Source of the DNA: an uncultured Actinomycetota bacterium | GTDB taxonomy: Bacteria; Actinomycetota; Actinomycetes; JACCUZ01 | Assembly: GCA_963762865.1 (NCBI GenBank) | Contig: CAVXNC010000024.1 | Span: 76,495 to 140,494, forward strand | Length of the DNA: 64,000 bases | Reading direction: 5' to 3' | Part shown: positions 17,285 to 31,148 of the stretch, piece by piece | How positions within the stretch are numbered: position 1 is the first letter of the stretch | Layout: the number at the start of each line of letters is the position of its first letter | Program-made: the position numbers and the translations under genes | The notes under the pieces: model-generated | Databases searched by the model: none | The model's input: the letters and a program-made list of their open reading frames with translations, nothing else | Told to the model about the DNA's origin: nothing

Positions 17285-17671
17285 ATGCTCAAGGTCCTGC
17301 TGTACGCCCTGCCGATCATCCTGGCGATCTACGCGCTGGTCGATCTCGTGCAGACCCGCGACGAGGACGTCCAGGGGCTGCCGAAGCTCATCTGGGTCGT
17401 CCTGATCGTGCTGATCTGGGTCATCGGCCCGGCCGCCTGGCTGCTCGCCGGCAAGCGCGGCCGATCGATCCTGCCCAACCTGTCGCCGCGCGCGGCCGGC
17501 GGTCCCAGTGGCCCGCCCGCGCGTCCGATGGCGCCGGACGACGACCCGGACTTCCTGCGCGGGCTCGGCCGGTCGACGCCGCCTCCCACGCCTCCCCCTG
17601 CGCCGCCTGCAGCCCCGCGCTCCGACGCGGACGACGAGCCGGGTGACGACCCGCCGGTCACCGCTCGCTGA
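17285..17671 (+). CDS. PLDc_N (phospholipase-D-like N-terminal) domain membrane protein
   Basis: Two TM helices with LPKLIWVVLIVLIWVIGPAAWLLAGKRG and a Pro-rich tail. Confidence 0.7.
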   Translation: MLKVLLYALPIILAIYALVDLVQTRDEDVQGLPKLIWVVLIVLIWVIGPAAWLLAGKRGRSILPNLSPRAAGGPSGPPARPMAPDDDPDFLRGLGRSTPPPTPPPAPPAAPRSDADDEPGDDPPVTAR

Positions 17672-18454
17672 CCGCCCGGACCAGCGCCGCCCTGTTGTCG
17701 CGCAGCCACGCGTCGTCAGCGGCCGCCCGCGCCTCGCCGTCGGTCTCCGCCCAGTGGCTCGCCCAGGGCTCGCGCCCGGCTGCTGCCTCCGCGCGGACAT
17801 GGCCGATCTGCTGCGCGCGTTCCTGGAGGATCACGTCGACGAGCTCCGCCGCCCGCTCCGGCTCGAGCCCGTAGGCGCGAGCGAGAAGACCGACTCGCCG
17901 TACGCCGTCAAGCTGGTCGGGATGGTGCAGCCGCGCGCCGGGCGCGTGCATCGGTGCCCACTCCTCGCACGCGATGGCGAGGTCCCACAGCGGCCGGCCC
18001 GGTGCCGCCTCCCCGAAGTCGATGAAGGCGACGACGCGACCGTCCCGGAAGACCACGTTCTCCGGGAAGAGGTCGTTGTGGCAGACGACCGGGCCGCCCT
18101 CGCGATCGGACCACTCGTCGGGCCAGCCGGCGGCTGACGTCTGGTCGAAAGTCGCTGTCGCGTCGTGGAAGCGGCGCAGCAGCCGGCCGACGCTCTCGAG
18201 CGCCACGTCGGTCAGCGCCCACTGCGGGTAGGGCGGCAGCGGTACGTCACCCTCGACGAACGTGAGGATGTCGCGGCCCTGCTCGTCGACTCCGAGGAAC
18301 CGTGGCGCGGCCTCGAAACCGACATCCTCGAGGTGCCTGAGCAACGCGCGCATGGCGGGCGACGACCGTCTGGCCGGTCGGCGCACGGTGTCGCCGACCC
18401 GCACCACACCCGCGCCCGGGTCCATCCCGCCCGCCAGGGCCGACTCGTCGCTCA
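17658..18454 (-). CDS. phosphotransferase (APH/choline-kinase-like) family protein
   Basis: HNDLFPENVV and IDFGEA catalytic/Mg-binding motifs are present. The 451-aa ORF N-terminus is an over-extension. Confidence 0.75.
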
Positions 18455-18587
18455 CGCCGCCAGCGTGCACGATCCGCCCGGCAACGTGCTGTCGCAGGCA
18501 GGAACCAGGGCGAATCGGGACGTGAGGAGTCAGGCGTTGAGGTGCCGACCACAAGAGACCACCATGAAGGTCGACGAGGAGGCAGAC

Positions 18588-19001
18588 ATGACCCATCACG
18601 AGCACCCCAACGTCCAGCTGGTCCGCGACGGCTTCGAAGCCGTCGACCGCGGCGACATCACCTGGTTGGCCGAGCACCTCTCGGAGGACGTCGTCTGGCA
18701 CGTCGGCGGGAACAGCAAGTGGGCGGGGTCCTACCGCGGCACGGCCGAGGTGCTGGCCTTCTTCGCCCGGCAGGGCGAGGCGATGGGGTCGGGACCCGCA
18801 GCCAAGATCCACGACATGCTCGGCAACGACGACCACGTCGTCGTCCTCGGCGACGCGACAGCGACCGCCAGGGACGGCTCGAGCGCCGCCTGGAAGTACG
18901 TGAACATCTTCCACGTCAAGGACGGCAAGGTGTCCGAGGTCTGGGGCATGGCCGAGAACGACGCCGACGTCGACCCGTTCCTCGACGCGCTTCCTGGCTG
19001 A
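18588..19001 (+). CDS. SnoaL-like / NTF2-fold (ketosteroid isomerase-like) protein
   Basis: MTHHEHPNVQLVRDGFEAVDRGDITWLAEHLSEDVVWHVGGNSKWAGSYRG... Confidence 0.7.
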   Translation: MTHHEHPNVQLVRDGFEAVDRGDITWLAEHLSEDVVWHVGGNSKWAGSYRGTAEVLAFFARQGEAMGSGPAAKIHDMLGNDDHVVVLGDATATARDGSSAAWKYVNIFHVKDGKVSEVWGMAENDADVDPFLDALPG

Positions 19002-19088
19002 CAGCGGCTCCACTCCGGGTTGGTCCGCACTGCGCTGTGGGCCCGGGTACTCATTGCCATCTGCCGCTGCGGAGCCCAGGCTCCGGGC

Positions 19089-20818: not shown

Positions 20819-21977
20819 CCTCCCGGGCGCGCCGCGTCCTTCAGTGCCCGCACCAGGTCGTGGATGCTCTCGAAGCTGTCGGCGTTGGCCTGGACCGCGA
20901 CGACGACACCGGTGTCGGGGAAGGCGACCAGCCGCACCACGTGGGACGTCTCCATCCCGCCATGGCCGACCGCACCGGGGGTGTCGTACTCGTCCCAAGG
21001 CGAGAAGTCGAGGGTCCCCAGGCCGTAGGACTCACCCCGGAAGTCGGTCATCTCGCGGAGCGAGGCGTCTGCGACCACGAACCCGCCGTACAGGTCGTAG
21101 CCCCAGCGGGCCAGGGTCGCGGCGTCTGTCTCGATGTTCCAACCGTCGGCAGCCATGGCGTCCTTGACGCGGTACAGGATCCCGCCGAGGCCGGGATGAC
21201 TCAGGACGCCTGCCCGAACCACCTTCGCCAGCGGCCGGCCCGTGACCTGCTCGATGATCTCCCCGAGCAAGAGGTAGTTGATGTTCGCGTACTGAGTGGT
21301 CGACCCCGCCGGGGACGATGGGCGGTGGGATCAGCTCCACCAGATCGGCAGTGGTGTACCCCTGGTCCACGAGCTCGACGTAGCCGTCCGGGTCGACGAG
21401 CCCGCTGCGCATCCCGAGCAGGTCCCGGATGCTGGCACCGTTCGCGTCGAACGACGAGAGCTCGGGCGGAAAGTAGTCGGCCGCCGGGACGTCCAGTGGG
21501 ACGGTCCCATCTTCGACCAGGCTCAGGACCTGGGCCGCCGTCATCGTCTTGCCCACACTGGCCGTGAGGAGCGGGGAGTCGGGCATCAGGGAGCTGCCCT
21601 GCCTGTCTACCCCCGCGGCTCCCGACCAGCTCCCTGAGCCGACGACGATGACCGCAGCGGCGACCCCGCGGAGCGTGCCTTCCGCAACCGCCTCGTCGAG
21701 CAGCTCCTGGAACGAGGCGGCCAACGTGTCCGGAAGGCGGCCACTGCGGGAACTCCGGGAAGTCGCCGAGCTCGGCGGTCCAGGTCCGGGAAGCGGGCCG
21801 AGCCGTCTGCGTGGCCTCGTCGGAGGTCGGCTTGACCGTCGCCTGGTCTGCTCCGACCGAGGAGGTGCAGGCGGCGAGCAACGACAGGGTCACTGTCGCC
21901 ACAAGTGTCCGCAGTGCGGCTGACAGTGTCACGGTCGTCTCCGATCGGCGCGCAACCACGGGCTGGGAGACCGACAA
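20803..21977 (-). pseudogene. secreted class-C beta-lactamase-like serine hydrolase (lipoprotein), split over three frames
   Basis: The lipoprotein signal (LSLLAACTSS) is in one frame, the S-x-x-K active site (TASVGKTM) in a second, and the C-terminal ...NINYLLLGEIIEQVTG... in a third. At least two single-base indels at G/C runs (about 21300 and 21750) cause the splits. Confidence 0.6.
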
Positions 21978-22221
21978 CAGGACGATGCCCGCCGAACAGC
22001 GACTCCTAGGAGTTCAACGCCTCGAGGGTGTGCCGAGGTTCGGTCGTCGCGGCCTTCGGTCGACCGCTGCCGTCGCCATCCCGCCCTGGTCGGCTCACAT
22101 CACCCAGAACGGACGAGGTGCCCTGGTTTGACGGGGCCTAGCGTCCGACGAGCCTGGAGTGCGATCCCGAAGTGACTCGGTCTGCACAGTTCGGGCGTTC
22201 CCTAGGCCCTGGGAGGCACCG

Positions 22222-22770
22222 ATGGCGGCATCCGTGACGGGATCGTCACAGCCTGGCTTGAGTGTCGGTCCGACCAGTGAGTTCAGCTTGTTCTTCCACG
22301 TGAAGCCCGGTCAGGGACCGTCGTTGCGGAGCGCGCTCCTGGCCCTGCAGGACACTCCTGGGTACCGGCCCGGCGACTACGGGATGGCTGTCCAGACCAT
22401 TCACGAGGCGCGCTTCGTCCTCTTCGACGACGACACCCGGCTCGCGTTCATCACCAGCTTCGACGGGCCATGGGACGCCTACATGGAGGACTTCTTCTCC
22501 TCCGGGCCGACTCTCGCGCTCTTTGACGTCATCTTCCGCCACGTGGACGGCTACGACGGGCTGCCGGACCTGGCCGCCCTCAGGGCGTTCATCCTGGATG
22601 CCGAGCAGACGGCAGGTGCGTACGCCCGCAACTATGGCGGCACCGTCAAGGAGATCCGGAAGGCCCAGCGCGTGAACGCGGCCTTCCAGCAGGTTCTCGA
22701 CCATCCGGAAGCGGCCGAGGTCCTCGAGCATCCAGCGATGCAGCCGCTGCTCGACGAGGCCGGCGACTAG
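22222..22770 (+). CDS. hypothetical protein (182 aa)
   Basis: Clean ORF with GGGAGG Shine-Dalgarno 5 nt upstream. No family recognised. Confidence 0.55.
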   Translation: MAASVTGSSQPGLSVGPTSEFSLFFHVKPGQGPSLRSALLALQDTPGYRPGDYGMAVQTIHEARFVLFDDDTRLAFITSFDGPWDAYMEDFFSSGPTLALFDVIFRHVDGYDGLPDLAALRAFILDAEQTAGAYARNYGGTVKEIRKAQRVNAAFQQVLDHPEAAEVLEHPAMQPLLDEAGD

Positions 22771-22800
22771 GACGGGCGGCAGGACCGGGAGCGACGTCCG

Positions 22801-23928
22801 ATGTCGGACCACATCTCTGGGCCGCGCGCCCTTGCCGACCCGATCGCGGACATCACCGACGTGTACGCGTTCCCCAGCCCTGAGGGGGCGGATCGCCTCG
22901 TGCTCGTCGTGAACACGCTTCCGATGGCCAAGCCCTCCGACCTGTTCTCGGGCGGGCTGGTCTACCGATTCAGGCTGCGTCCGCTCACCCGGGCGACGAC
23001 CGACGGTCCCGGGTGGCAGTTCGTCCCCGCCGACGAGGAGCACGTCCTCGACTGCGTGTTCTCCACGCCCGATCCCGCCGCTGACGCGCCTGTCCAGGAA
23101 GGCACCTGCACGTCCCCGACCGGAGAGACGGTGTCGTTCCGCGTGAACGACCCGCAGGGCGGTTCCGGTGCCGGCATCCGCGTATTCGCCGGCACCCGGT
23201 GGGATCCGTTCATCATGGATGCACGTGCCGCCTTGACCACGCTCGCGACACACGAGCTGGCTTTCACCGACCCCGGCTCGATCTTCCTGGACGGCAAGAA
23301 CGTGCTGAGTGTCGTCATCGAGCTGGACACGCGGGGGCTGGGTGGCGGCCTCGTGGGTGTCGTCGCGGAGACGCTGACGCGAGGGAACTTCAACGTTCGG
23401 ATCGAGCGCGTCGGAAGGCCCGAGGTGAAGAACATGATGCTCGCACCGAAGGAGTTCGACCGGGTGAACCGGGACCTGGAGATCCGTGACTTGTACAACA
23501 TGGAGGACGCGTTCCACCCCGGCGGCACCTACGGCGGCGCCTACCGCGCGCGTTTGAACGCCAACCTTGCCTTCTGGGACGGCCTGGACGGGAAGGTGGA
23601 CTGGCCAACGGACGAGGACGGCAACCACCCGTTGACAGACCTGGTCCTAGCCGACTTTCTCGTCGTCGACGTCACGAAGCCCTACCTCGAGCGGGGCTCG
23701 TTCCTCGAGATCGAACTCGCGGCCCGACGCGGTCAGCCGCACCAGACGTGCGGGGGACGGACGTTGAACGACGACGTGATGGACACCATCTTCACCCAGC
23801 TCGTCAACGCCGGACATGGCCCCACCATCCGGGACGGCGTCGACTCCGCCACCCGGCCGGCCAGCGGCACGTTCCCCTACCTGGCGCCGCCTAACCCGCA
23901 CCCGCCCGAGCCGCCGGAGCACCACTAG
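22801..23928 (+). CDS. DUF4331-family protein
   Basis: The N-terminal motif SGPRALADPIADITDVYAFPSPE matches the conserved DUF4331 start (DPxADxTDlYAF). Confidence 0.65.
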   Translation: MSDHISGPRALADPIADITDVYAFPSPEGADRLVLVVNTLPMAKPSDLFSGGLVYRFRLRPLTRATTDGPGWQFVPADEEHVLDCVFSTPDPAADAPVQEGTCTSPTGETVSFRVNDPQGGSGAGIRVFAGTRWDPFIMDARAALTTLATHELAFTDPGSIFLDGKNVLSVVIELDTRGLGGGLVGVVAETLTRGNFNVRIERVGRPEVKNMMLAPKEFDRVNRDLEIRDLYNMEDAFHPGGTYGGAYRARLNANLAFWDGLDGKVDWPTDEDGNHPLTDLVLADFLVVDVTKPYLERGSFLEIELAARRGQPHQTCGGRTLNDDVMDTIFTQLVNAGHGPTIRDGVDSATRPASGTFPYLAPPNPHPPEPPEHH

Positions 23929-23950
23929 TGACGGAAGGCACCTGAACGCC

Positions 23951-25291
23951 ATGCCCGAGGCGACTCATTCCGATCTTGAGCTCGACGACATCCAGGCCGG
24001 TGCGCTGTTCGAGCGACCCTCGCCCTACGTCGGCAAGTACCTGATGCTGCGCATCGTGGACCGTGCCGACGGCCGCGAGCTGGTCCGGCGACTGCATCGG
24101 GTCGCCAGCTCCTCGAGGACGTCGAGCAGCGGGAACGACACATCTCTCACCGTGGCGTTCACCTACAGGGGTCTCGAGGCGCTGGGTGTCCCGCAGACGT
24201 CACTGGACACCTTCGCGCCGGAGTTCCGTGAAGGGATGAAAGCGCGCGCCGCGCTGCTGGGAGATGTGGGTGAGAGCAGTCCCGAGCACTGGGAGCCGCC
24301 GTTCGGGAGTGCCGACGTGCACGTGGCCATCGCGGTTCTCGCGCCTGACGCTGCTCGGCTGGAGGAGGCCGCTGAGAAGGCACGCCAGGCACACACCGAG
24401 CTACCGGGAGTTGAGGTGATCTGGCGGCAGGACTGCTACCAGCTCGCCACCGGACGGACCTCGTTCGGTTTCAAGGACGGCATCGGCCAGCCCGCTGTCG
24501 AAGGAAGCGGTAGGCCGTCCACGAATTCCCGCGAGCCACCTCTGAAGGCCGGCGAGATCATCCTGGGCTACCCCGACGAGACCGGCGAACTACCGCCGAT
24601 GCCGACGCCGGAGGTCCTGGGTCGCAACGGAACCTACGTCGTCTTCCGGAAGCTGCACACCAAGGTCGCGACCTACCGACGCTACCTGCGCGACCGGGCG
24701 GCGAGCCGTGAGGAGGAGGACCTCCTCGGCGCGAAGATGGTCGGGCGCTGGCAGAGCGGCGCTCCGCTCGCCGTTGCACCGGACCACGATGACCCCGAGC
24801 TGGGTGCCGATGCCCGGCGCAACAACGACTTCGTCTTCGGCGACGACCCCCGCGGGTTCAAGTGCCCGGTGGGCGCCCACGCCCGGCGGGCGAACCCGCG
24901 CGACGCCATGGACCAGGACGGCAGCGTGGACGTCCGGCTTCACCGGATGATCCGGCGCGGAACGAGCTATGGCCCCGCTCTGCCCCAGGGCGCCCTCGAG
25001 GACGACGGCGCCGACCGCGGGATCATCTTCGTGTTCGCCGGGGCGCACCTCAAGCGCCAGTTCGAGTTCGTCAAGACCCAGTGGCTGAACGACGGCATCT
25101 TCATCGGGGCACCACTCGAGAAGGACCCCCTCGTCGGACCGAACGACGAGTCGAGCAGCTTCACGATCCCCCAGCGCCCGATCCGACGAAAGCTGCAGAA
25201 CCTGCCGCCATTCGTGGTGACGCGGGGCGGGGAGTACTGCTTCGCGCCTGGTCTGACGGCCATGCGCTGGCTGGCCGAGCTGGACACATGA
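23951..25291 (+). CDS. Dyp-type (dye-decolorizing) heme peroxidase
   Basis: Full-length DyP with the GxxDG region FGFKDGIGQP and the proximal His region. No signal peptide. Confidence 0.85.
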   Translation: MPEATHSDLELDDIQAGALFERPSPYVGKYLMLRIVDRADGRELVRRLHRVASSSRTSSSGNDTSLTVAFTYRGLEALGVPQTSLDTFAPEFREGMKARAALLGDVGESSPEHWEPPFGSADVHVAIAVLAPDAARLEEAAEKARQAHTELPGVEVIWRQDCYQLATGRTSFGFKDGIGQPAVEGSGRPSTNSREPPLKAGEIILGYPDETGELPPMPTPEVLGRNGTYVVFRKLHTKVATYRRYLRDRAASREEEDLLGAKMVGRWQSGAPLAVAPDHDDPELGADARRNNDFVFGDDPRGFKCPVGAHARRANPRDAMDQDGSVDVRLHRMIRRGTSYGPALPQGALEDDGADRGIIFVFAGAHLKRQFEFVKTQWLNDGIFIGAPLEKDPLVGPNDESSSFTIPQRPIRRKLQNLPPFVVTRGGEYCFAPGLTAMRWLAELDT

Positions 25292-25319
25292 ACGGCCGGC
25301 ACCGACCAGAGAGGAACGC

Positions 25320-26187
25320 GTGGCGATGAGCTCATCCGGCACCGATCGATGGGCGGCCCTGGACTTCGGGCCGCCCCCTCCAGATGTCGTCGAGACCGAG
25401 GCTCCCGTGCTCCTCGACTACCTCGCCGATGGCCAGGTGGCGCTGGTCACGCTCAACCGACCGCATGCCGACAACGCGATCACAACAGAGATGGGCGCCC
25501 TCCTGACCGAGGTCGTGGAGACGATCGCGGTGCGTACCGCCGTCCGGGTGGTGGTCCTGACCGGAGCCGGCGAACGCGCCTTCTCCGTCGGCAGCGACCT
25601 ACGACAGCGCAAGAGCATGACCAAGGAGGACTGGCTGCGGCAGCGCCAGGCCTTCGACCGCACCCTCTACACCGTGCGTCAGCTGCGCAAGCCCATCTTC
25701 GCCGCCGTCAACGGCATCGCGTACGGCGGCGGGTGCGAGCTGGCCCAGAGCACTGACTTCATCATCGCGTCCGACACGGCCACGTTCGGCCAACCCGAAG
25801 CCATGCTCGGACTTGCCGCCGGCGGCGGCTCACCAGCCTTGCTGCCGCGCCTGCTGCCGCCGCGGCAAGGCCTTGCAGATGCTCATGACCGGCGACCCGA
25901 TTCCTGCTCACGAGGCCTACCGCCTCGGCATGGTCAACGAGATCCATCCCCCCGGCGACCTGATGCCGGCCGCCCGGCGCATCGCAGACAAGATCGCAAG
26001 CAACTCACCGACGGCGGTGCAGTCGGTGAAGCGCGCCGCTCAGCTGGGCGAAGGGCAGCCGATCGAGCAGGCGATCGCCATCATGATGGACGCCCACTGG
26101 CGATCGGCTGTCCACCCCGACCGCGTCGAGGGCATAGGAGCCTTCAACGACGGCCGCGACCCGAGCTTCGACGATGCCGACTTCTGA
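25320..26187 (+). CDS. enoyl-CoA hydratase/isomerase (crotonase), with an apparent 1-nt frameshift near 25845
   Basis: The N-terminal 170 aa (FAAVNGIAYGGGCELA) are in frame 1. The conserved C-terminus GKALQMLMTGDPIPAHEAYRLGMVNEI... is in the +1 frame (ORF 25813..26187). Deleting one C in ccgccgcgg restores LPRLLPRGKA. Confidence 0.7.
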
Positions 26188-26237
26188 GGCGGGAGCGCCC
26201 CGCGTCCAGAAGACCCACCGAGAGAAGGACTGAGACC

Positions 26238-27318
26238 ATGACCGTCGCCGGCGACCTCGAGTCGGAACGCGCCGCACTTCAGATGATCAATCCCGCTCCC
26301 TACAACGCCGAGGCTCCGCCTCAGGCCCTGGTCGGAGACATCACCCCCACGGAGCTTCACTACGTCCGCAGCAACTTCGCATTGCCCACTCATGACGGCA
26401 CCTTGGGCATCGGCGGCGCCGTGGGAAACCCCACGACCCTCAGCCTCGATGATCTACGCGCGCTGCCGGCCCACGATCAGGCGGTCACGCTGGAATGTGC
26501 GGGGAACGGACGCCTCGACATGAGACCGCTTCCGACCGGTGAGCCGTGGGGCGACTACGCGGTTTCGACGGCACGCTGGACCGGCGCCCGGCTCAGCGAC
26601 GTACTCGCCCTGGCCCAGCCAGGCACGGAGGGGGTTGACGTCCGGTTCGAAGGGGCCGATCACGGCCCGTACCACCTCCAGGCGATCCTCCCGGAGACCA
26701 ATCAGGCCGACCTCACCTTCGTCCGCGCGTTGCCCCTCGCCGAGGCAGCCGATCCGTCCTCGGCGATCCTGATCGCCTACCAGATGAACGGCGAGCCGCT
26801 GACCCCCGATCACGGCGCCCCGTTCCGGCTCATCGTGCCGCACTGGTACGCCGTCGCCTCGGTGAAGTGGCTGAGGCGGATCGACGTCCTCACCGAGCCC
26901 TACGCCGGCGAGTTCCAGACCGGCCACTACATCTACCAATGGCCGGACCGTCCCCACGAGGCCGTGCGCCTCATGCGCGTGCGTGCCCGCATCACCGACC
27001 CCGCTCCCGGGGCCGTCCTCCCCCTCGGGCCGCTACACAGTTCGAGGAAAGGCGTGGTCAGGCACCGGGCCCGTCACGCAGGTCGACATCAGCCTCACCG
27101 GCGAAGGTGACTGGCACCCGGCGCAGCTGGACCCGCCGAACGGTCCCTACCAGTGGCAGGACTGGTCATTCGTCTGGGACAGCAACGGCGTCGGACGTCA
27201 CACCCTGCGCGCCAGGGCGACCGACGCCGCCGGCAACGTGCAGCCCGACGTCCCACCTTGGAACCGGTTGGGCTACGGGAACAACGCCATCGAAGTCATG
27301 TACGTCGACCGGCACTGA
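26238..27318 (+). CDS. sulfite-oxidase-family molybdopterin oxidoreductase (SorA/YedY-like), with an apparent 1-nt frameshift near 27035
   Basis: The Moco-binding domain (LECAGNGR, FRLIVPHWY) is followed by the Moco-dimerisation Ig domain in another frame (ORF 26983..27318). A C5 run at about 27031-27035, if reduced to C4, gives the continuous ...AVLPSGRYTVRGKAWSG.... Confidence 0.7.
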
Positions 27319-27390
27319 TCGCCGGGGCGTGCAACCGTCCCCGACAAGTCGTTGGACCCGCGGCGGGGGACCGTGCCAGGGTCGGCGGGA

Positions 27391-28137
27391 TGTCTTCTGA
27401 GCTGCCCGATCATTTCGCCGGAGCGATCGCCGAGCGGTACGACGCGGGGTCGCCGGAGATGTTCGAGCCGGAGGTGCTCGGGCCGACGGTCGACCTACTA
27501 GCCGAGCTGGCCGGATCCGGGCCGGCGCTCGAGCTCGCGATCGGCACCGGTCGCGTCGCCCTCCCGCTCCATGAGCGGGGCGTCGACTCTCTTCGGGATC
27601 GACCTGTCGGCCGACATGGTCGCGCAGCTGCGCGCCAAACCGGGCGGCGCGGACATCGAGGTCACCGTCGGCGACCTCGCCGCCGCGACCGTCGGGCCGA
27701 AGGGCGACTTCACCCTCGCGTACCTGGTCTTCAACACCATCGGCAACCTGACGACGCAGGACGCGCAGGTGGCCGCGTTCCAGAACGCCGCCGCGCACCT
27801 CAGGGTCGGAGGGACGTTCGTCATCGAGACCGGTGTGCCCGACCTGCAGCGACTGCCAGCGGGCCAGACCGACGTCGTCTTCCACCGCGACGCCGACCAC
27901 GTCGGCATCGACGAGTACGACGTCGTCACCCAGTGGATGGCGTCCCACCACTACAGCCGGGTCGGCGACCACTACGAGCTGGTATCGGTGCCGTTCCGCT
28001 ACGTGTGGCCCTCCGAGCTCGACCTGATGGCGCGCATCGCCGGCCTGCGGCTGCGCGACCGGTGGGCCGGCTGGTCCAAGGAACCATTCACCGCCGATAG
28101 CCGCTCGCACGTCTCGGTGTGGGAGAAGACCGGCTAG
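27391..28137 (+). CDS. SAM-dependent methyltransferase, with an apparent frameshift near 27590
   Basis: The N-terminus MSSELPDHFAGAIAERYDAG..LELAIGTGRVALPLHERGVD is in one frame and ...LFGIDLSADMVAQL... (ORF 27571..28137) in another. Confidence 0.55.
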
Positions 28138-28562
28138 AGCCGCGAGAGCGTCGCGTCGTCCCGCTCACCGCCGAAGTACTTGTCCAGGACCTGCCCGTAG
28201 ACCGGCTCGTCCGGGTCGGCGGCGTCGAAGAGCGTCATCGACGACCGCAGCTTCACCGCGTCGATCGAGCCCAGCACAGCGACCGCGTCATCCCCCGGCA
28301 GGTCGGCCAGAGCCTGCGCCGCCGCCACCAGCCGCGGACCGAGCACCGGGTGCGCGACGTACGCCCTCGCTTCGGCGAGCCCGCGCACGCCGAAGAACTG
28401 CGACGTCGGCGACATCCCGAGACCCTCGACCTGCGGGAAGACGAACCAGATCCAGTGCCCGCGCTTGGAGCCGGCTCTCAGCTCGGCGATCGCTGAGTCG
28501 TAGGTGCGCCCGGCGTCCTGCGCGTCGACGAAGCGCGCCAGGTCGAAGGCCTCAGCCGACAC
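28134..28562 (-). CDS. DUF1810 family protein
   Basis: LARFVDAQDAGRTYDSAIAELRAGSKRGHWIWFVFPQ is the signature of this family. Confidence 0.7.
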   Translation of the reverse strand: MSAEAFDLARFVDAQDAGRTYDSAIAELRAGSKRGHWIWFVFPQVEGLGMSPTSQFFGVRGLAEARAYVAHPVLGPRLVAAAQALADLPGDDAVAVLGSIDAVKLRSSMTLFDAADPDEPVYGQVLDKYFGGERDDATLSRL

Positions 28563-29544
28563 CGGCGTAGGAGTGGAAGCCGACCAGCCAGATGTTCACG
28601 ACGAGGTAGTTGAAGAGGAAGGTGCCGTAGGCGACCAGCGCGATGTAGGCGGCCTTGCGGCCCTTCCAGCCGGCGGTGGCGCGCGCGTGCAGGTAGAGGG
28701 TGAGGACCATCCAGGTGATGAACGCCCACGTCTCCTTGGGGTCCCATCCCCAGTAGCGGCCCCACGCGTTCTCCGCCCAGATCGCGCCGGCGATGACGGC
28801 GAAGGTCCAGATCGGGTAGGCGAAGGCGTGCATCCGGTAGGAGGCCCGGTCCAGGACCGCTGCCGTCGGCAGCCGGTCGAAGAAGCTCGCCGGCCGGTCC
28901 TGACCGCGGGCCTCGAGCCGGTCCTGCACGAGGAAGCACACCGTCTGCGCGAAGCCGATCGTCAGCAGCCCCGACGCGATGATCGCGGCCGACACGTGGA
29001 TGACCAGCCACACCGACTTCAGCGCCGGCACCAGCTGCGCCGACTCGGTGTAGAGCACCGACACGGCGAGGCCGAGCGTCAGCAGCACGGGCAGGATCAC
29101 GAAGGTGCCGAGGTAGCGGATCTCCTGGCGGCGCAGCAGCACCAGGAAGACGCCGGTGACGGCCAGCGCACCGGTCACCGAGAACTCGAACATGTTGCCC
29201 CACGGCGCGCGGTCCGCCGACATGCCGCGGGTGACGACCGCGCCGAGGTGGAGCAGGAAGGCCAGGACGGTGAGGCTCACTGCGATGCGCCCGACGCGGT
29301 CCGATCGCGACGAGCGGTCCGCGACGCTGGTCTCGTCCGGCGCCGGTGCGACGTACGTCGTCGAGGAGCCGCCGCCACCCACCGTCGCCAGTCGATGTTC
29401 CTCGAGGTGGTCTGCACGACGCCCGTCGCGGACCGGCCGGGAGAAGGCGAGCTCGGCGGCGAAGAAGTACATCGCCAGCGCGTAGACCGCCATCGCCGAG
29501 TAGAGCAGGTTGTTGCTGAGCCCGGCGAGCTCGGCACTCGTCAC
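28552..29544 (-). CDS. ccsA: cytochrome c biogenesis protein CcsA/ResC (heme handling)
   Basis: Multi-TM protein with the WGRYWGWDPKETWAFITW tryptophan-rich WWD motif. Confidence 0.9.
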   Translation of the reverse strand: MTSAELAGLSNNLLYSAMAVYALAMYFFAAELAFSRPVRDGRRADHLEEHRLATVGGGGSSTTYVAPAPDETSVADRSSRSDRVGRIAVSLTVLAFLLHLGAVVTRGMSADRAPWGNMFEFSVTGALAVTGVFLVLLRRQEIRYLGTFVILPVLLTLGLAVSVLYTESAQLVPALKSVWLVIHVSAAIIASGLLTIGFAQTVCFLVQDRLEARGQDRPASFFDRLPTAAVLDRASYRMHAFAYPIWTFAVIAGAIWAENAWGRYWGWDPKETWAFITWMVLTLYLHARATAGWKGRKAAYIALVAYGTFLFNYLVVNIWLVGFHSYAGVG

Positions 29545-31148
29545 GTCGTTCTCCCGTCCGCGGTCCCGCGACCCATCCGATCCGCGAGGCCGGCGACCTC
29601 GTCGGTCAGCGCCTCGTGGGCCTCTCCCTCGGCACGGGACAGGCCCGCGACCTCGACGAGCGTACGCCCGTCATCAGCGACCGAGGCCCGGACCCAGACG
29701 CGGCGCCGGCGCACGAAGAGCGACAGCATCAGACCCGCCAGGGCGAGCACCGCGGAGGCAAGTGCGGGGCCGGTGCCGGGGTTGTGCGCGACCTGCAGCG
29801 ACGCCCACCTGCGGACGCCCTCGAAGGTGATGGAGCTGCCGTCGGCCAGCGTCATCGTGCGGCCCGGGGCCAGCGACTGGGCCAGCGGTTGGCCGCTCTG
29901 GCCCATGACCTGGGTGAGCTCGGACTTGTCGAGGGAGTAGACCGACTGCGGGGTGCCGTCGTCGAGACCGAGGTCGCCGGTCCAGGCGGTGAGGACGGCG
30001 CGCGGCAACCGGAGGCCGGGGAAGACCGAGATCGGCCCGGCCTGCGGGTCGAAGGCCGCGGACGGCAGGAAGAAGCCCTCGAAGCCGAGCTGGTCTGGCT
30101 GCGCGCTCGGCGCCTTCACGACACCGCGCGACGCCATGTTGCCGTCGCGAGGCAGGAAGGGCACCGGGCCGGAGGTGACGACGGCGCCGGTCGAGTCGCG
30201 CACGGTGAACACCGGGGCGTAGCCGTTGCCGAGCAGGAACACCTTGGTGCCGTCGATCACCAGCGGGTGGTTGACGCGCAGCAGGCCGTCGCGCTCGGCG
30301 GCGTCGGGGGACGAGCGGTAGGTCACCCGGGCGCGGAAGTCTCGTGGGGCGCCGCGCTGGTCGCCGTCCTGCTGGTAGCGCACCGCAAGGTCGTCCAGGT
30401 GGAAGGTGAAGGGGACGAGCGACGAGTCGCGGAAGAACGCGCCACCGGCGAAGGTGTCGTAGGCGGTCGGCGTGTTGGCGAAGCCGCGGCCTTCGACGAC
30501 GAGCACGTTGGCCTTGAAGCCGAAGAGGCTGCCCAGCGCGACACCGACGAGCAGCAGCAGCAGCGCGAGGTGGAAGACCAGGTTGCCGGTCTCGCGCCAG
30601 TGGCCGCGCTCGGCGGCGACCGATCCCTCGTGGGCGTCGACGCGGAAGCGGTCCGCACGCAGCACCTCCCGAGCGCGGTCCAGGACGTCCGACGGTGACT
30701 CGTCGGTCGACCAGGACTGGTGAACCGGCAGCCGCGTCAGGTTCCGCGGAGTCACCGGCGGGCGGGCGCGCACCGCTGCCCAGTGCACCCGGCTGCGCGG
30801 CAGCACGCAGCCCACCAGCGACACGAAGAGCAGCAGGTAGATCGCCGCGAACCACGGCGCCGAGTAGACCTCGTAGAGCGAGAACCGCTCGTACCACGGC
30901 GACAGCGTCGGGTGCTGCGCCGCGAACTGCTGCACCCGCAGCGGGTCCACGCTGCGCTGCGGCACCAGCGACCCGGGCAGCGCCGCCAGCGTCAGCAGGA
31001 AGAGCAGCACCAACGCGGTGCGCATCGAGGTGAGCTGGCGCCACGCCCAGCGGGCCAGCTCCAGGGGCCGCAGCTCCGACGGCAGCGATGGCGACGGGCG
31101 CTGCTCGCCGCCGGTCCGCTCGGGCGCCTGGTCCACCTGGTCGACCAT
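29541..31148 (-). CDS. resB: cytochrome c biogenesis protein ResB/Ccs1
   Basis: 535 aa ResB-family protein sitting upstream of ccsA. Confidence 0.9.
   Translation of the reverse strand: MVDQVDQAPERTGGEQRPSPSLPSELRPLELARWAWRQLTSMRTALVLLFLLTLAALPGSLVPQRSVDPLRVQQFAAQHPTLSPWYERFSLYEVYSAPWFAAIYLLLFVSLVGCVLPRSRVHWAAVRARPPVTPRNLTRLPVHQSWSTDESPSDVLDRAREVLRADRFRVDAHEGSVAAERGHWRETGNLVFHLALLLLLVGVALGSLFGFKANVLVVEGRGFANTPTAYDTFAGGAFFRDSSLVPFTFHLDDLAVRYQQDGDQRGAPRDFRARVTYRSSPDAAERDGLLRVNHPLVIDGTKVFLLGNGYAPVFTVRDSTGAVVTSGPVPFLPRDGNMASRGVVKAPSAQPDQLGFEGFFLPSAAFDPQAGPISVFPGLRLPRAVLTAWTGDLGLDDGTPQSVYSLDKSELTQVMGQSGQPLAQSLAPGRTMTLADGSSITFEGVRRWASLQVAHNPGTGPALASAVLALAGLMLSLFVRRRRVWVRASVADDGRTLVEVAGLSRAEGEAHEALTDEVAGLADRMGRGTADGRTT

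Follow-up and report, generated by a model that had tools for sequence, protein, structure and literature searches.

Reviews of the DyP-type heme peroxidases (DyPs) name three types of operon that encode these enzymes, EfeUOB, encapsulin and Sco-ECuC-DtpA, and the roles of the bacterial class V enzymes are described as not established (PMC9719856). The window analyzed here, a stretch of 64,000 nt from an uncultured Actinomycetota bacterium (positions 76,495 to 140,494 of contig CAVXNC010000024.1, assembly GCA_963762865.1), carries a class V DyP gene that follows the genes of a 182-residue protein without family annotation (P1) and of a DUF4331 protein (P2). We conclude that the evolutionary core of this cassette is the pair of P1 and the DyP, in which P1 is the invariant partner of the peroxidase and DUF4331 is not, and we consider it very probable that the two form a true functional partnership. 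We regard the cassette as a fourth, widespread type of DyP operon, one in which the partner family is new; in the literature on the genomic context of DyPs, we found no paper describing the association of P1 with a DyP. In the window, P1, P2 and the DyP are apparently the front of a five-gene operon that continues with an enoyl-CoA hydratase (ECH) gene and a molybdoenzyme gene (window positions here and below).

22222 to 22770, plus strand: P1, ATG to TAG, 182 amino acids, an unannotated family with a predicted ABM-like fold.
22801 to 23928, plus strand: P2, ATG to TAG, 375 amino acids, a cytoplasmic DUF4331 protein.
23951 to 25291, plus strand: the DyP heme peroxidase, class V (C-type), ATG to TGA, 446 amino acids.
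25326 to 26187, plus strand: the ECH (crotonase) gene, with ECH_1 on two reading frames, located by tblastn with the intact orthologue from the related locus L001.
26238 to 27318, plus strand: the gene of a heme-less molybdoenzyme of the sulfite oxidase family, with an Oxidored_molyb match, located by tblastn (molybdenum and dimerization domains).

The original prediction had described three same-strand genes separated by gaps of 30 and 22 nt, and direct reading of the junctions gives the same values (30 nt from P1 to P2 and 22 nt from P2 to the DyP, all on the plus strand). It had closed the unit at 25291, whereas the conserved unit runs on, on the same strand throughout, across a gap of ~30 nt into the ECH gene and across a further 50 nt into the molybdoenzyme gene, which makes five genes. 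Its statement that a strong Shine-Dalgarno sequence stands before the first gene only is roughly right, in that P1 has GGGAGG at 22211 to 22216, 5 nt before its start, and the sites of P2 (GGGAG, 10 nt upstream of the start) and of the DyP (GGAAGG, 13 nt upstream) are weaker or less well spaced, although purine runs are present before both. The ECH gene has an alternative GTG start at 25320. A scan of the window found no plus-strand terminator inside the cassette.

Judged by its alignments, the window DyP is an intact, ordinary class V/C member with all catalytic residues. It scores 115.5 bits against TIGR01413 (cutoff, 100.5) and 39.7 bits against DyP_N, PF21105 (cutoff, 27.5), and it aligns over its full length with the Deinococcus radiodurans DyP (DrDyP; PDB 8RE3/8RE2) at 45% identity (E = 5e-125); after DrDyP, which is class C, the next PDB matches are fungal D-type DyPs, AnaPX and DyP2. 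The GFKDG motif with Asp176, the proximal His310, the distal Arg335 and Phe360 align to D189, H324, R348 and F375 of DrDyP, whose roles are taken from PMC10820274. DrDyP has GXXDM at the motif, where the window DyP has the canonical GXXDG.

Each of the three described operon types resembles the window cassette in one respect and differs from it in others. The EfeUOB operon likewise places a DyP (EfeB, class I/A) with dedicated partners, but the window DyP belongs to another class, has no EfeU or EfeO neighbor, scores only 33.8 bits against the EfeB model TIGR01412 (cutoff, 428), and has no RR motif and no Tat signal in its N terminus, MPEATHSDLELDD. Encapsulin-DyP operons (class P/B) also pair a cytoplasmic DyP with a dedicated partner; in contrast, the window DyP aligns end to end with DrDyP, with no extension past that alignment, and therefore has no C-terminal targeting peptide, and neither the cassette nor the related loci contain an encapsulin gene. 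The Sco-ECuC-DtpA operon of Streptomyces lividans links a DyP to a possible metal-binding partner, as the window cassette may do. DtpA, however, is a Tat-exported class I/A enzyme (PMC9719856), whereas the window system is wholly cytoplasmic and metal binding by its DUF4331 protein is suggested by the N terminus alone. The original prediction of a full-length DyP that lacks both a Tat signal and an encapsulin tail, and that is neither EfeUOB-like nor encapsulin associated, is thus upheld.

P1 adjoins DyPs of this subclade in Actinomycetota, Deinococcota and Pseudomonadota, and P1 of the distant lineages is 33 to 45% identical to window P1. The arrangement around the pair is DUF3237-DUF4331-P1-DyP-TPR in a metagenome-assembled genome (MAG) of a Gram-negative bacterium (locus L084), SDR-P1-DUF4331-DyP in Streptomyces (L088), P1-DUF4331-DyP-SBF-DUF3237-TPR-flavoprotein on a metagenome contig (L089), P1-DUF4331-DyP-ECH-molybdoenzyme in L090 (P1 74% identical to that of the window) and P1-DyP-catalase-family protein in L086 and L091 (transposase flanked). 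The pair also lies on a 12-kb plasmid of Acinetobacter lwoffii and on plasmids of Sphingomonas, Rhodococcus koreensis, Ketogulonicigenium, Brucella anthropi, Methylorubrum, Streptomyces and Sinorhizobium. In a survey of plasmids, 37 of the 40 records that bear P1 show a DyP on the same strand no more than 1.1 kb away; two of the other three have one ~7 kb away, and the third is unresolved. Of the 44 plasmid records whose DyP is a close homologue (41% identity or more), 39 also contain P1, compared with none of the 16 more distant DyPs among the matches listed. The P1 stop codon and the DyP start codon overlap or lie 1 to 3 nt apart in five lineages, and the identity matrices of P1 and the DyP correlate with r = 0.59, a value that none of 2,000 permutations reached. 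Because the linkage outlasts divergence, changes of gene order, transfer across phyla and exchange of the third gene, it is strong evidence of a functional partnership.

The third partner, by comparison, is interchangeable: it is DUF4331, a catalase-related protein such as DR_A0146 of D. radiodurans, or another protein. Many P1-DyP clusters have a catalase-family protein of ~360 to 390 amino acids in place of DUF4331, and these proteins form one homologous family (27 to 67% identity), to which the 385- to 392-residue proteins of L086 and L091 also belong; their candidacy as divergent DUF4331 members was rejected. One Streptomyces plasmid has an unrelated 337-residue protein in the third position. 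Where DUF4331 occurs, it keeps to the peroxidase, adjoining a DyP in essentially all 80 of the related loci described below, in six of the six plasmid records with a tblastn match and, in distant lineages, in every DUF4331-type locus described. DUF4331 and DyP thus adjoin far beyond chance, and the original prediction, which had been staked on that adjacency, survives in this respect. Its picture of two dedicated partners holds for P1, which is invariant, but not for DUF4331, which other lineages replace. The cluster on a Sinorhizobium chiapasense plasmid (L100, 579 to 13071) comprises hemA, P1, the DyP, NIPSNAP, a DUF4331-SRPBCC fusion, a TPR protein, a c-type cytochrome, a 2Fe-2S protein, a xanthine-oxidase-family molybdoenzyme and HupE/UreJ; xanthine-oxidase-family genes likewise follow the P1P1-DyP pair of L083.

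P2 had been assigned to DUF4331 at the outset, and its score of 95.1 bits against PF14224 (cutoff, 27; in two stretches) bears this out. A PDB sequence search with P2 returned nothing significant, and its structural model is poor (pLDDT 53, from a shallow alignment), with Foldseek matches that are meaningless antibody-type beta-sandwiches (TM ~0.08). The cytoplasmic DUF4331 proteins adjacent to DyPs are 33 to 54% identical, yet all start with M-S-D-H (22801 to 22812 in the window; also L084, L088, L089, L090 and L100), an N terminus that is invariant in the six lineages. After removal of Met, an N terminus of the form NH2-X-X-His is that of the ATCUN Cu/Ni-binding motif, and we treat the Ser-Asp-His terminus of P2 as a putative ATCUN metal site, which is a lead and not a result. 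In Sinorhizobium, DUF4331 and an SRPBCC domain for hydrophobic ligands form one fused protein, and a Bradyrhizobium DUF4331 homologue is annotated as "SRPBCC family protein." Our literature searches found no paper that mentions DUF4331 and, for catalase-related proteins together with Mycobacterium avium, no paper either.

The described locus that comes closest to the window is DR_A0144-DR_A0145-DR_A0146 on chromosome II of D. radiodurans (L092, 5839 to 9072), where a 3-hydroxyacyl-CoA dehydrogenase gene is followed by a P1 homologue, DrDyP and a catalase-family protein. The P1 homologue, DR_A0144, lies directly upstream of DrDyP, with its stop codon 1 nt from the DyP start; the DyP is of the same subclade and has the same catalytic residues as that of the window, and an acyl-CoA enzyme is adjacent in both. 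The locus differs in having a catalase-related third partner instead of DUF4331 and in having no sulfite oxidase, and DR_A0144 differs from window P1 in its N-terminal extension of ~50 amino acids and in lacking the C-terminal tail that other members conserve. A TetR regulator is also found upstream in this locus, with the dehydrogenase. DrDyP studied alone is six-coordinate low spin and inactive with H2O2 at neutral pH; it takes up heme when expressed alone in Escherichia coli, and its physiological substrate or trigger was questioned by the authors (PMC10820274). DR_A0146 is reported to be without catalase activity (PMC6300522). In the literature on this locus, we found the adjacency of DR_A0145 and DR_A0146 noted and no discussion of DR_A0144. 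A small catalase-related protein without catalase activity, coupled with an oxygen- or peroxide-handling enzyme, is also the arrangement of the catalase-related hemoprotein/lipoxygenase systems (allene oxide synthase, hydroperoxide lyase), for which fatty acid hydroperoxides are the substrates in the known cases (PMC5617202). Unlike these systems, the P1-DyP clusters contain no lipoxygenase, and in the window DUF4331 replaces the catalase-related protein.

P1 has no match in Pfam or NCBIfam, even at E ≤ 1, and neither PDB sequence searches with P1 nor a PDB profile search with its family gave anything significant. To this extent the first protein was correctly described as having no recognizable family; it nevertheless belongs to a large one with a predicted ABM-like fold. 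A large protein collection holds 3,089 homologues, the top 120 of which share 84% identity or more with P1, and a library of 50%-identity representatives gives 879 clusters at E ≤ 1e-3. Full-length members that are 31 to 50% identical share the motifs VKPG, HxxRxVLFDNDTRLLFATxFDGDWDxYIDDF and EGYPG and a strikingly conserved C-terminal tail, AFQxVLDxPxAAxALxHPALKPLLDxAAD. The residues R64, D69, D71, W84, D85 and Y87 of P1 are invariant. The AlphaFold2 model (pLDDT 86.7, pTM 0.79) has a beta-alpha-beta-beta-alpha core followed by three helices, and its best Foldseek matches in the PDB are dimeric alpha+beta barrels of the ABM (antibiotic biosynthesis monooxygenase) type (WhiE-ORFI, FasU, Rv0793, SnoaB, ActVA-Orf6 and many structural-genomics ABM proteins), with weak E values from 6e-4. 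P1 therefore represents a new family at the sequence level, and on this model its fold is probably ABM-like, of the ferredoxin kind, and not that of a lipocalin, for which the original prediction had proposed to look. By sequence it is not assignable to the ABM family proper, for which it has no family-model or profile match. On its model, P1 may share the ferredoxin-like beta-alpha-beta-beta-alpha-beta core of that family, and it differs from it in carrying an extra helical C-terminal region of ~60 amino acids. A subset of members (P0211, P0226 and P0230) has ~385 to 400 amino acids and is a tandem domain duplication that mimics the barrel dimer, which fits dimer formation by P1. In the one locus of this kind that we looked at (L083, 8001 to 10210), tandem P1-P1 is followed by a short DyP-like gene of 334 amino acids. 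The tandem form also resembles DyP and chlorite-dismutase proteins, which have a two-domain architecture; the idea that P1 is a "half-DyP" at the sequence level was rejected, as a profile-profile comparison of the P1 and DyP families gave a probability of 0.07%, that is, no similarity.

Among close relatives, the entire cassette is conserved. A scan of one genome per species yielded 80 loci with close P1 relatives. In 71 of them, all five cassette genes occur, colinear and spanning no more than 5.6 kb; three loci are cut by contig ends, and six are informative variants (P1-DyP alone, the trio alone, DUF4331 at the 3' end, no molybdoenzyme, only a remnant of the DyP, and the entire cassette duplicated in tandem). 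The order P1-DUF4331-DyP is a conserved colinear unit, found in essentially all 80, and Actinomycetospora callitridis has the same five genes intact and colinear. Cassette variants occur at L052 (two copies), L048, L010 and L034/L036; they include an Acidimicrobiaceae MAG in which the cassette is reduced to P1 and the DyP, and a single contig of Nocardioidaceae that bears two partial copies. The five proteins are 70 to 93% identical across Actinomycetes, Thermoleophilia and Acidimicrobiia (carriers include Nocardioides, Leifsonia, Kribbella, Jiangella, Arthrobacter, Actinomycetospora, Solirubrobacter, Baekduia and Ilumatobacter), and the flanks are unrelated, with no flanking gene family common to more than about one-quarter of the loci. 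The simplest explanation of this level of identity between classes, given that the flanks are unrelated, is that a self-contained cassette has spread horizontally in the Actinomycetota. The flanking family found most often, a small SHOCT membrane protein, varies in position and strand and was for that reason excluded from the unit. In the window, the cassette region (22001 to 28000) has 67 to 69% GC compared with 70 to 74% in the 10 kb on each side, which is 2 to 6 points lower and fits acquisition by horizontal transfer.

The fourth gene matches PF00378 (ECH_1) on two frames (E = 1.5e-34 and 1.8e-12), and it falls far short of the equivalog cutoff of each of its best NCBIfam models (EchA19 and others), so that by these matches it is a member of the crotonase family to which no equivalog model assigns a specific reaction. 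The fifth gene matches Oxidored_molyb in the window, and its intact orthologue carries both Pfam domains (Oxidored_molyb and Mo-co dimerization) and matches the chicken and plant sulfite oxidase structures (E = 2e-47). Its CAGNGR aligns to CAGNRR of chicken sulfite oxidase, so the motif of the Mo-ligand Cys, CAGN(G/R)R, is kept. A heme domain and a signal peptide are both absent from the protein. Because the SoxC, SorA and SorT equivalog models all score below cutoff, we place it in the sulfite oxidase family but in none of these three groups. It has the two-domain architecture, the Mo-ligand Cys and the lack of a heme domain of plant sulfite oxidase, which passes electrons to O2 and thereby releases H2O2. 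Unlike the plant enzyme, it is a cytoplasmic protein of bacteria, and only by analogy is it assumed to produce H2O2.

Other genes recur beside the P1-DyP pair. They encode enoyl-CoA hydratase, 3-hydroxyacyl-CoA dehydrogenase, thioesterases, oleate hydratase, P450 with ferredoxin, SDR, a pyridine-nucleotide-disulfide flavoprotein, an HbpS-like protein, DUF3237, SBF transporters, TPR proteins and molybdoenzymes of the sulfite oxidase or xanthine oxidase family. Sulfur-linked genes (ssuD, arylsulfatase, sulfatase and sulfite oxidase) lie beside the pair in unrelated lineages (L093, 1039 to 2247; L095, 1 to 2218; L086, 2497 to 4833; and the window, 26238 to 27318). The original prediction had suggested an oxidative-stress or heme-handling module; these neighbors speak no less strongly for a substrate that is a hydrophobic organic compound or an acyl-CoA, and oxidative stress or heme handling is only one of several possible functions.

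We consider moderately probable, chemistry included, a reading in which the cassette encodes a multicomponent cytoplasmic DyP module that acts on a hydrophobic organic substrate, with P1 as the dedicated partner of the peroxidase. P1, probably a homodimeric barrel, would be the accessory subunit of this DyP subclade and would bind the peroxidase, either presenting the hydrophobic substrate or oxidant to it or switching its heme from a resting state that does not react with H2O2 to an active one. The third component, whether DUF4331 as here or the catalase-related heme protein elsewhere, may also handle peroxide or metal. The whole would be a peroxide-driven system of the cytoplasm that oxidizes or detoxifies a hydrophobic organic compound, for which an organic or fatty-acyl hydroperoxide and a phenolic acyl-CoA are the candidates, and lineage-specific CoA-dependent enzymes would process the substrate or the product. 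In the actinobacterial cassette, the sulfite-oxidase-type enzyme might supply H2O2 from O2, as plant sulfite oxidase does. The gene structure, the assignments of families and of a predicted fold, the intact catalytic residues and the linkage that is conserved across phyla are direct results, and from them we infer the physical interaction of P1 with the DyP, the nature of the substrate and the supply of peroxide by the molybdoenzyme. Turnover of lipid or other organic hydroperoxides is slightly favored over aromatic catabolism. In a sharper version of this reading, bacterial class V DyPs would depend on P1 as an obligate partner that activates them; P1, the DyP and DUF4331 or the catalase-related protein would be a hitherto unrecognized cytoplasmic machine of three components for organic (lipid-type) hydroperoxides, and cytoplasmic DUF4331 would be a metalloprotein with an ATCUN-like site at its N-terminal Ser-Asp-His. 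We put it forward tentatively, as a proposal more doubtful than probable.

Several observations weigh against the reading of a DyP module with P1 as its dedicated partner. Five close DyP homologues on plasmids (three in Nostoc and two in Rhizobium) have no detectable P1, and the best 150 representatives of the P1 family include no natural P1-DyP fusion. The similarity of P1 to ABM proteins is weak, with a Foldseek E value of ~1e-3 and TM scores of 0.6 to 0.7 only when normalized to targets of ~100 amino acids, and P1 has no invariant His or Cys that would point to a cofactor (His61 is present in about three-quarters of the members). The accessory genes differ widely between lineages and therefore do not define one substrate, and the gene contexts are compatible with a fatty-acid reading and with an aromatic one. 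The ECH and the molybdoenzyme are absent from most nonactinobacterial versions, so the idea of peroxide supply cannot be general.

The aromatic alternative, which we regard as possible but rather unlikely, takes the pair to serve the catabolism of aromatic compounds or lignin fragments. The DyP would oxidize phenolics inside the cell, P1 would act on the same substrate as a cofactor-free oxygenase, cyclase or decarboxylase of the ABM type, and the neighbors would process lignin-derived or polyketide-like aromatics, with an ECH of the hydroxycinnamoyl-CoA hydratase-lyase type, DUF3237 decarboxylases, SDR, P450 and SRPBCC. This would account for the presence of polyketide ABM cyclases, decarboxylases and monooxygenases among the best structural matches of P1, for the P450 and ferredoxin that adjoin the Methylorubrum cluster, for the SRPBCC domain fused to DUF4331 and for the DUF3237 genes in the L084 and L089 clusters, since the characterized DUF3237 proteins PhcF, PhcG and PinX are decarboxylases of lignin-derived dimers (PMC9942872, PMC12607616); reviews also report the oxidation of lignin model compounds by DyPs in vitro. 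Neither the cassette nor its flanks, however, contain ring-cleavage genes or genes of a known aromatic pathway, the sulfite oxidase of the actinobacterial cassette is left unexplained, and the oleate hydratase, the 3-hydroxyacyl-CoA dehydrogenase and the catalase-related partner point to lipids instead.

The fold of P1 also bears on a second alternative, in which P1 is a heme chaperone or a heme-degrading protein (IsdG/MhuD-like) that loads or recycles heme for the DyP and the catalase-related partner. The ABM fold is common to the IsdG-type heme oxygenases. In addition, the DyP and the catalase-related protein with which P1 is found are both heme proteins, HbpS-like genes occur in L084 and L088, and hemA lies near the Sinorhizobium cluster. 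We consider this account unlikely, as P1 has no invariant His that could ligate heme, no IsdG-type protein is among the top structural matches listed, and DrDyP acquires its heme without help from the locus (PMC10820274).

An island of general defense against H2O2 or oxidative stress, in which a peroxidase and a catalase-like protein travel with unrelated passengers, would fit the adjacency of the peroxidase to a catalase-family protein in many lineages, and the Deinococcus literature places both proteins under oxidative-stress defense (PMC6300522). The same review, however, judges DR_A0145 to be minor for resistance, and the properties of the two Deinococcus proteins, one without catalase activity and the other unreactive with H2O2 at physiological pH, are not those of such a system. 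It would also leave the strict requirement for P1 and the CoA-dependent enzymes unexplained, and we hold it to be quite improbable.

We give still less credence to metal handling in the manner of EfeUOB or Sco-ECuC-DtpA, in which the Ser-Asp-His at the N terminus of DUF4331 would bind Cu or Ni, a metal that the DyP would then oxidize. The invariant M-S-D-H terminus, with its ATCUN form, the HupE/UreJ gene at the end of the Sinorhizobium cluster and the metal-related nature of known DyP operons (PMC9719856) all speak for it, but every component is cytoplasmic, the actinobacterial cassette has no transporter, and DUF4331, whose metal binding is only putative, is dispensable in many P1-DyP clusters. 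That the genes are mere fellow travelers on a mobile island with no functional link, as the horizontally transferred look of the cassette and the transposases that flank some versions might suggest, is scarcely credible when the adjacency of P1 and DyP outlasts divergence to 33 to 45% identity, rearrangement of the genes, replacement of the third partner and passage from one phylum to another and when the P1 stop and DyP start codons overlap.

Upstream of P1, two further features were recorded in the window.

22111 to 22145, plus strand: a promoter-like bipartite motif, GGACGAGG (22111 to 22118) and CCTAGCGTC (22137 to 22145).
22146 to 22221, plus strand: the 5' leader, with CCTGGAG at 22153, where related loci have an inverted repeat, and the Shine-Dalgarno sequence GGGAGG at 22211 to 22216.

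The motif, written as G(G/A)TGA(G/A)G-N19-22-(C)CTAnCGT, stands upstream of P1 in 28 of 81 loci by the strict pattern, compared with 0.66 in shuffled sequences, and downstream of it, related loci have a short inverted repeat, GGCTGGAG...CTCCAGC, as well as a leader of ~80 nt. A riboswitch or leader-RNA reading was dropped: RNAalifold gave the leader -1.4 kcal/mol and one covarying pair, which is weak support for an RNA structure, and the leader matches no Rfam family. For these reasons, the bipartite motif and the repeat are more likely to be a promoter and operator borne by the cassette. A scan for the sigma-70 consensus found no promoter upstream of P1 or in the cassette, and recognition by an alternative sigma factor is therefore possible.

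Two cassette genes are interrupted in the window. By tblastn, the ECH gene is frameshifted between 25833 and 25860 and the molybdoenzyme gene around 26953 to 27032. An upstream beta-lactamase-like gene (21032 to 21270, minus strand) and a downstream methyltransferase gene (~27390 to 27571) also look split, which brings the number of frameshifted-looking genes within ~7 kb of this high-GC DNA (65 to 75% GC in the window) to four. Among the 80 related loci, 22 have cassette proteins split over several high-scoring segment pairs, and many of these are MAGs. This pattern suggests that the frameshifts are (long-read) assembly errors and not pseudogene decay.

Elsewhere in the window, an APH-type phosphotransferase open reading frame (minus strand) and a SnoaL-like one (plus strand) overlap almost completely at 17658 to 19013, and each matches its Pfam domain only in part. 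On the minus strand at 28134 to 31148 are DUF1810 and then two genes of cytochrome c biogenesis, one likely of the CcsB type and the next likely of the ResB type, both labeled from their sequences without a family search; these three genes have no link with the cassette in other genomes.

For the biology of these peroxidases, the pairing means that P1 is an unannotated family of thousands of members that stands almost always beside them, and it could help to explain the role of the bacterial class V/C DyPs and the apparent inactivity of some. The crystallized DrDyP may look inactive alone because its neighbor, DR_A0144, was never coexpressed with it, and if P1 is indeed an activator, this would explain why DrDyP-like enzymes in general look inactive when studied alone. 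DUF4331 gains its first functional context, together with a hypothesis of metal binding. Finally, DyPs are pursued as biocatalysts for dyes and lignin, and an activating partner or the true substrate of these enzymes would be of practical value.

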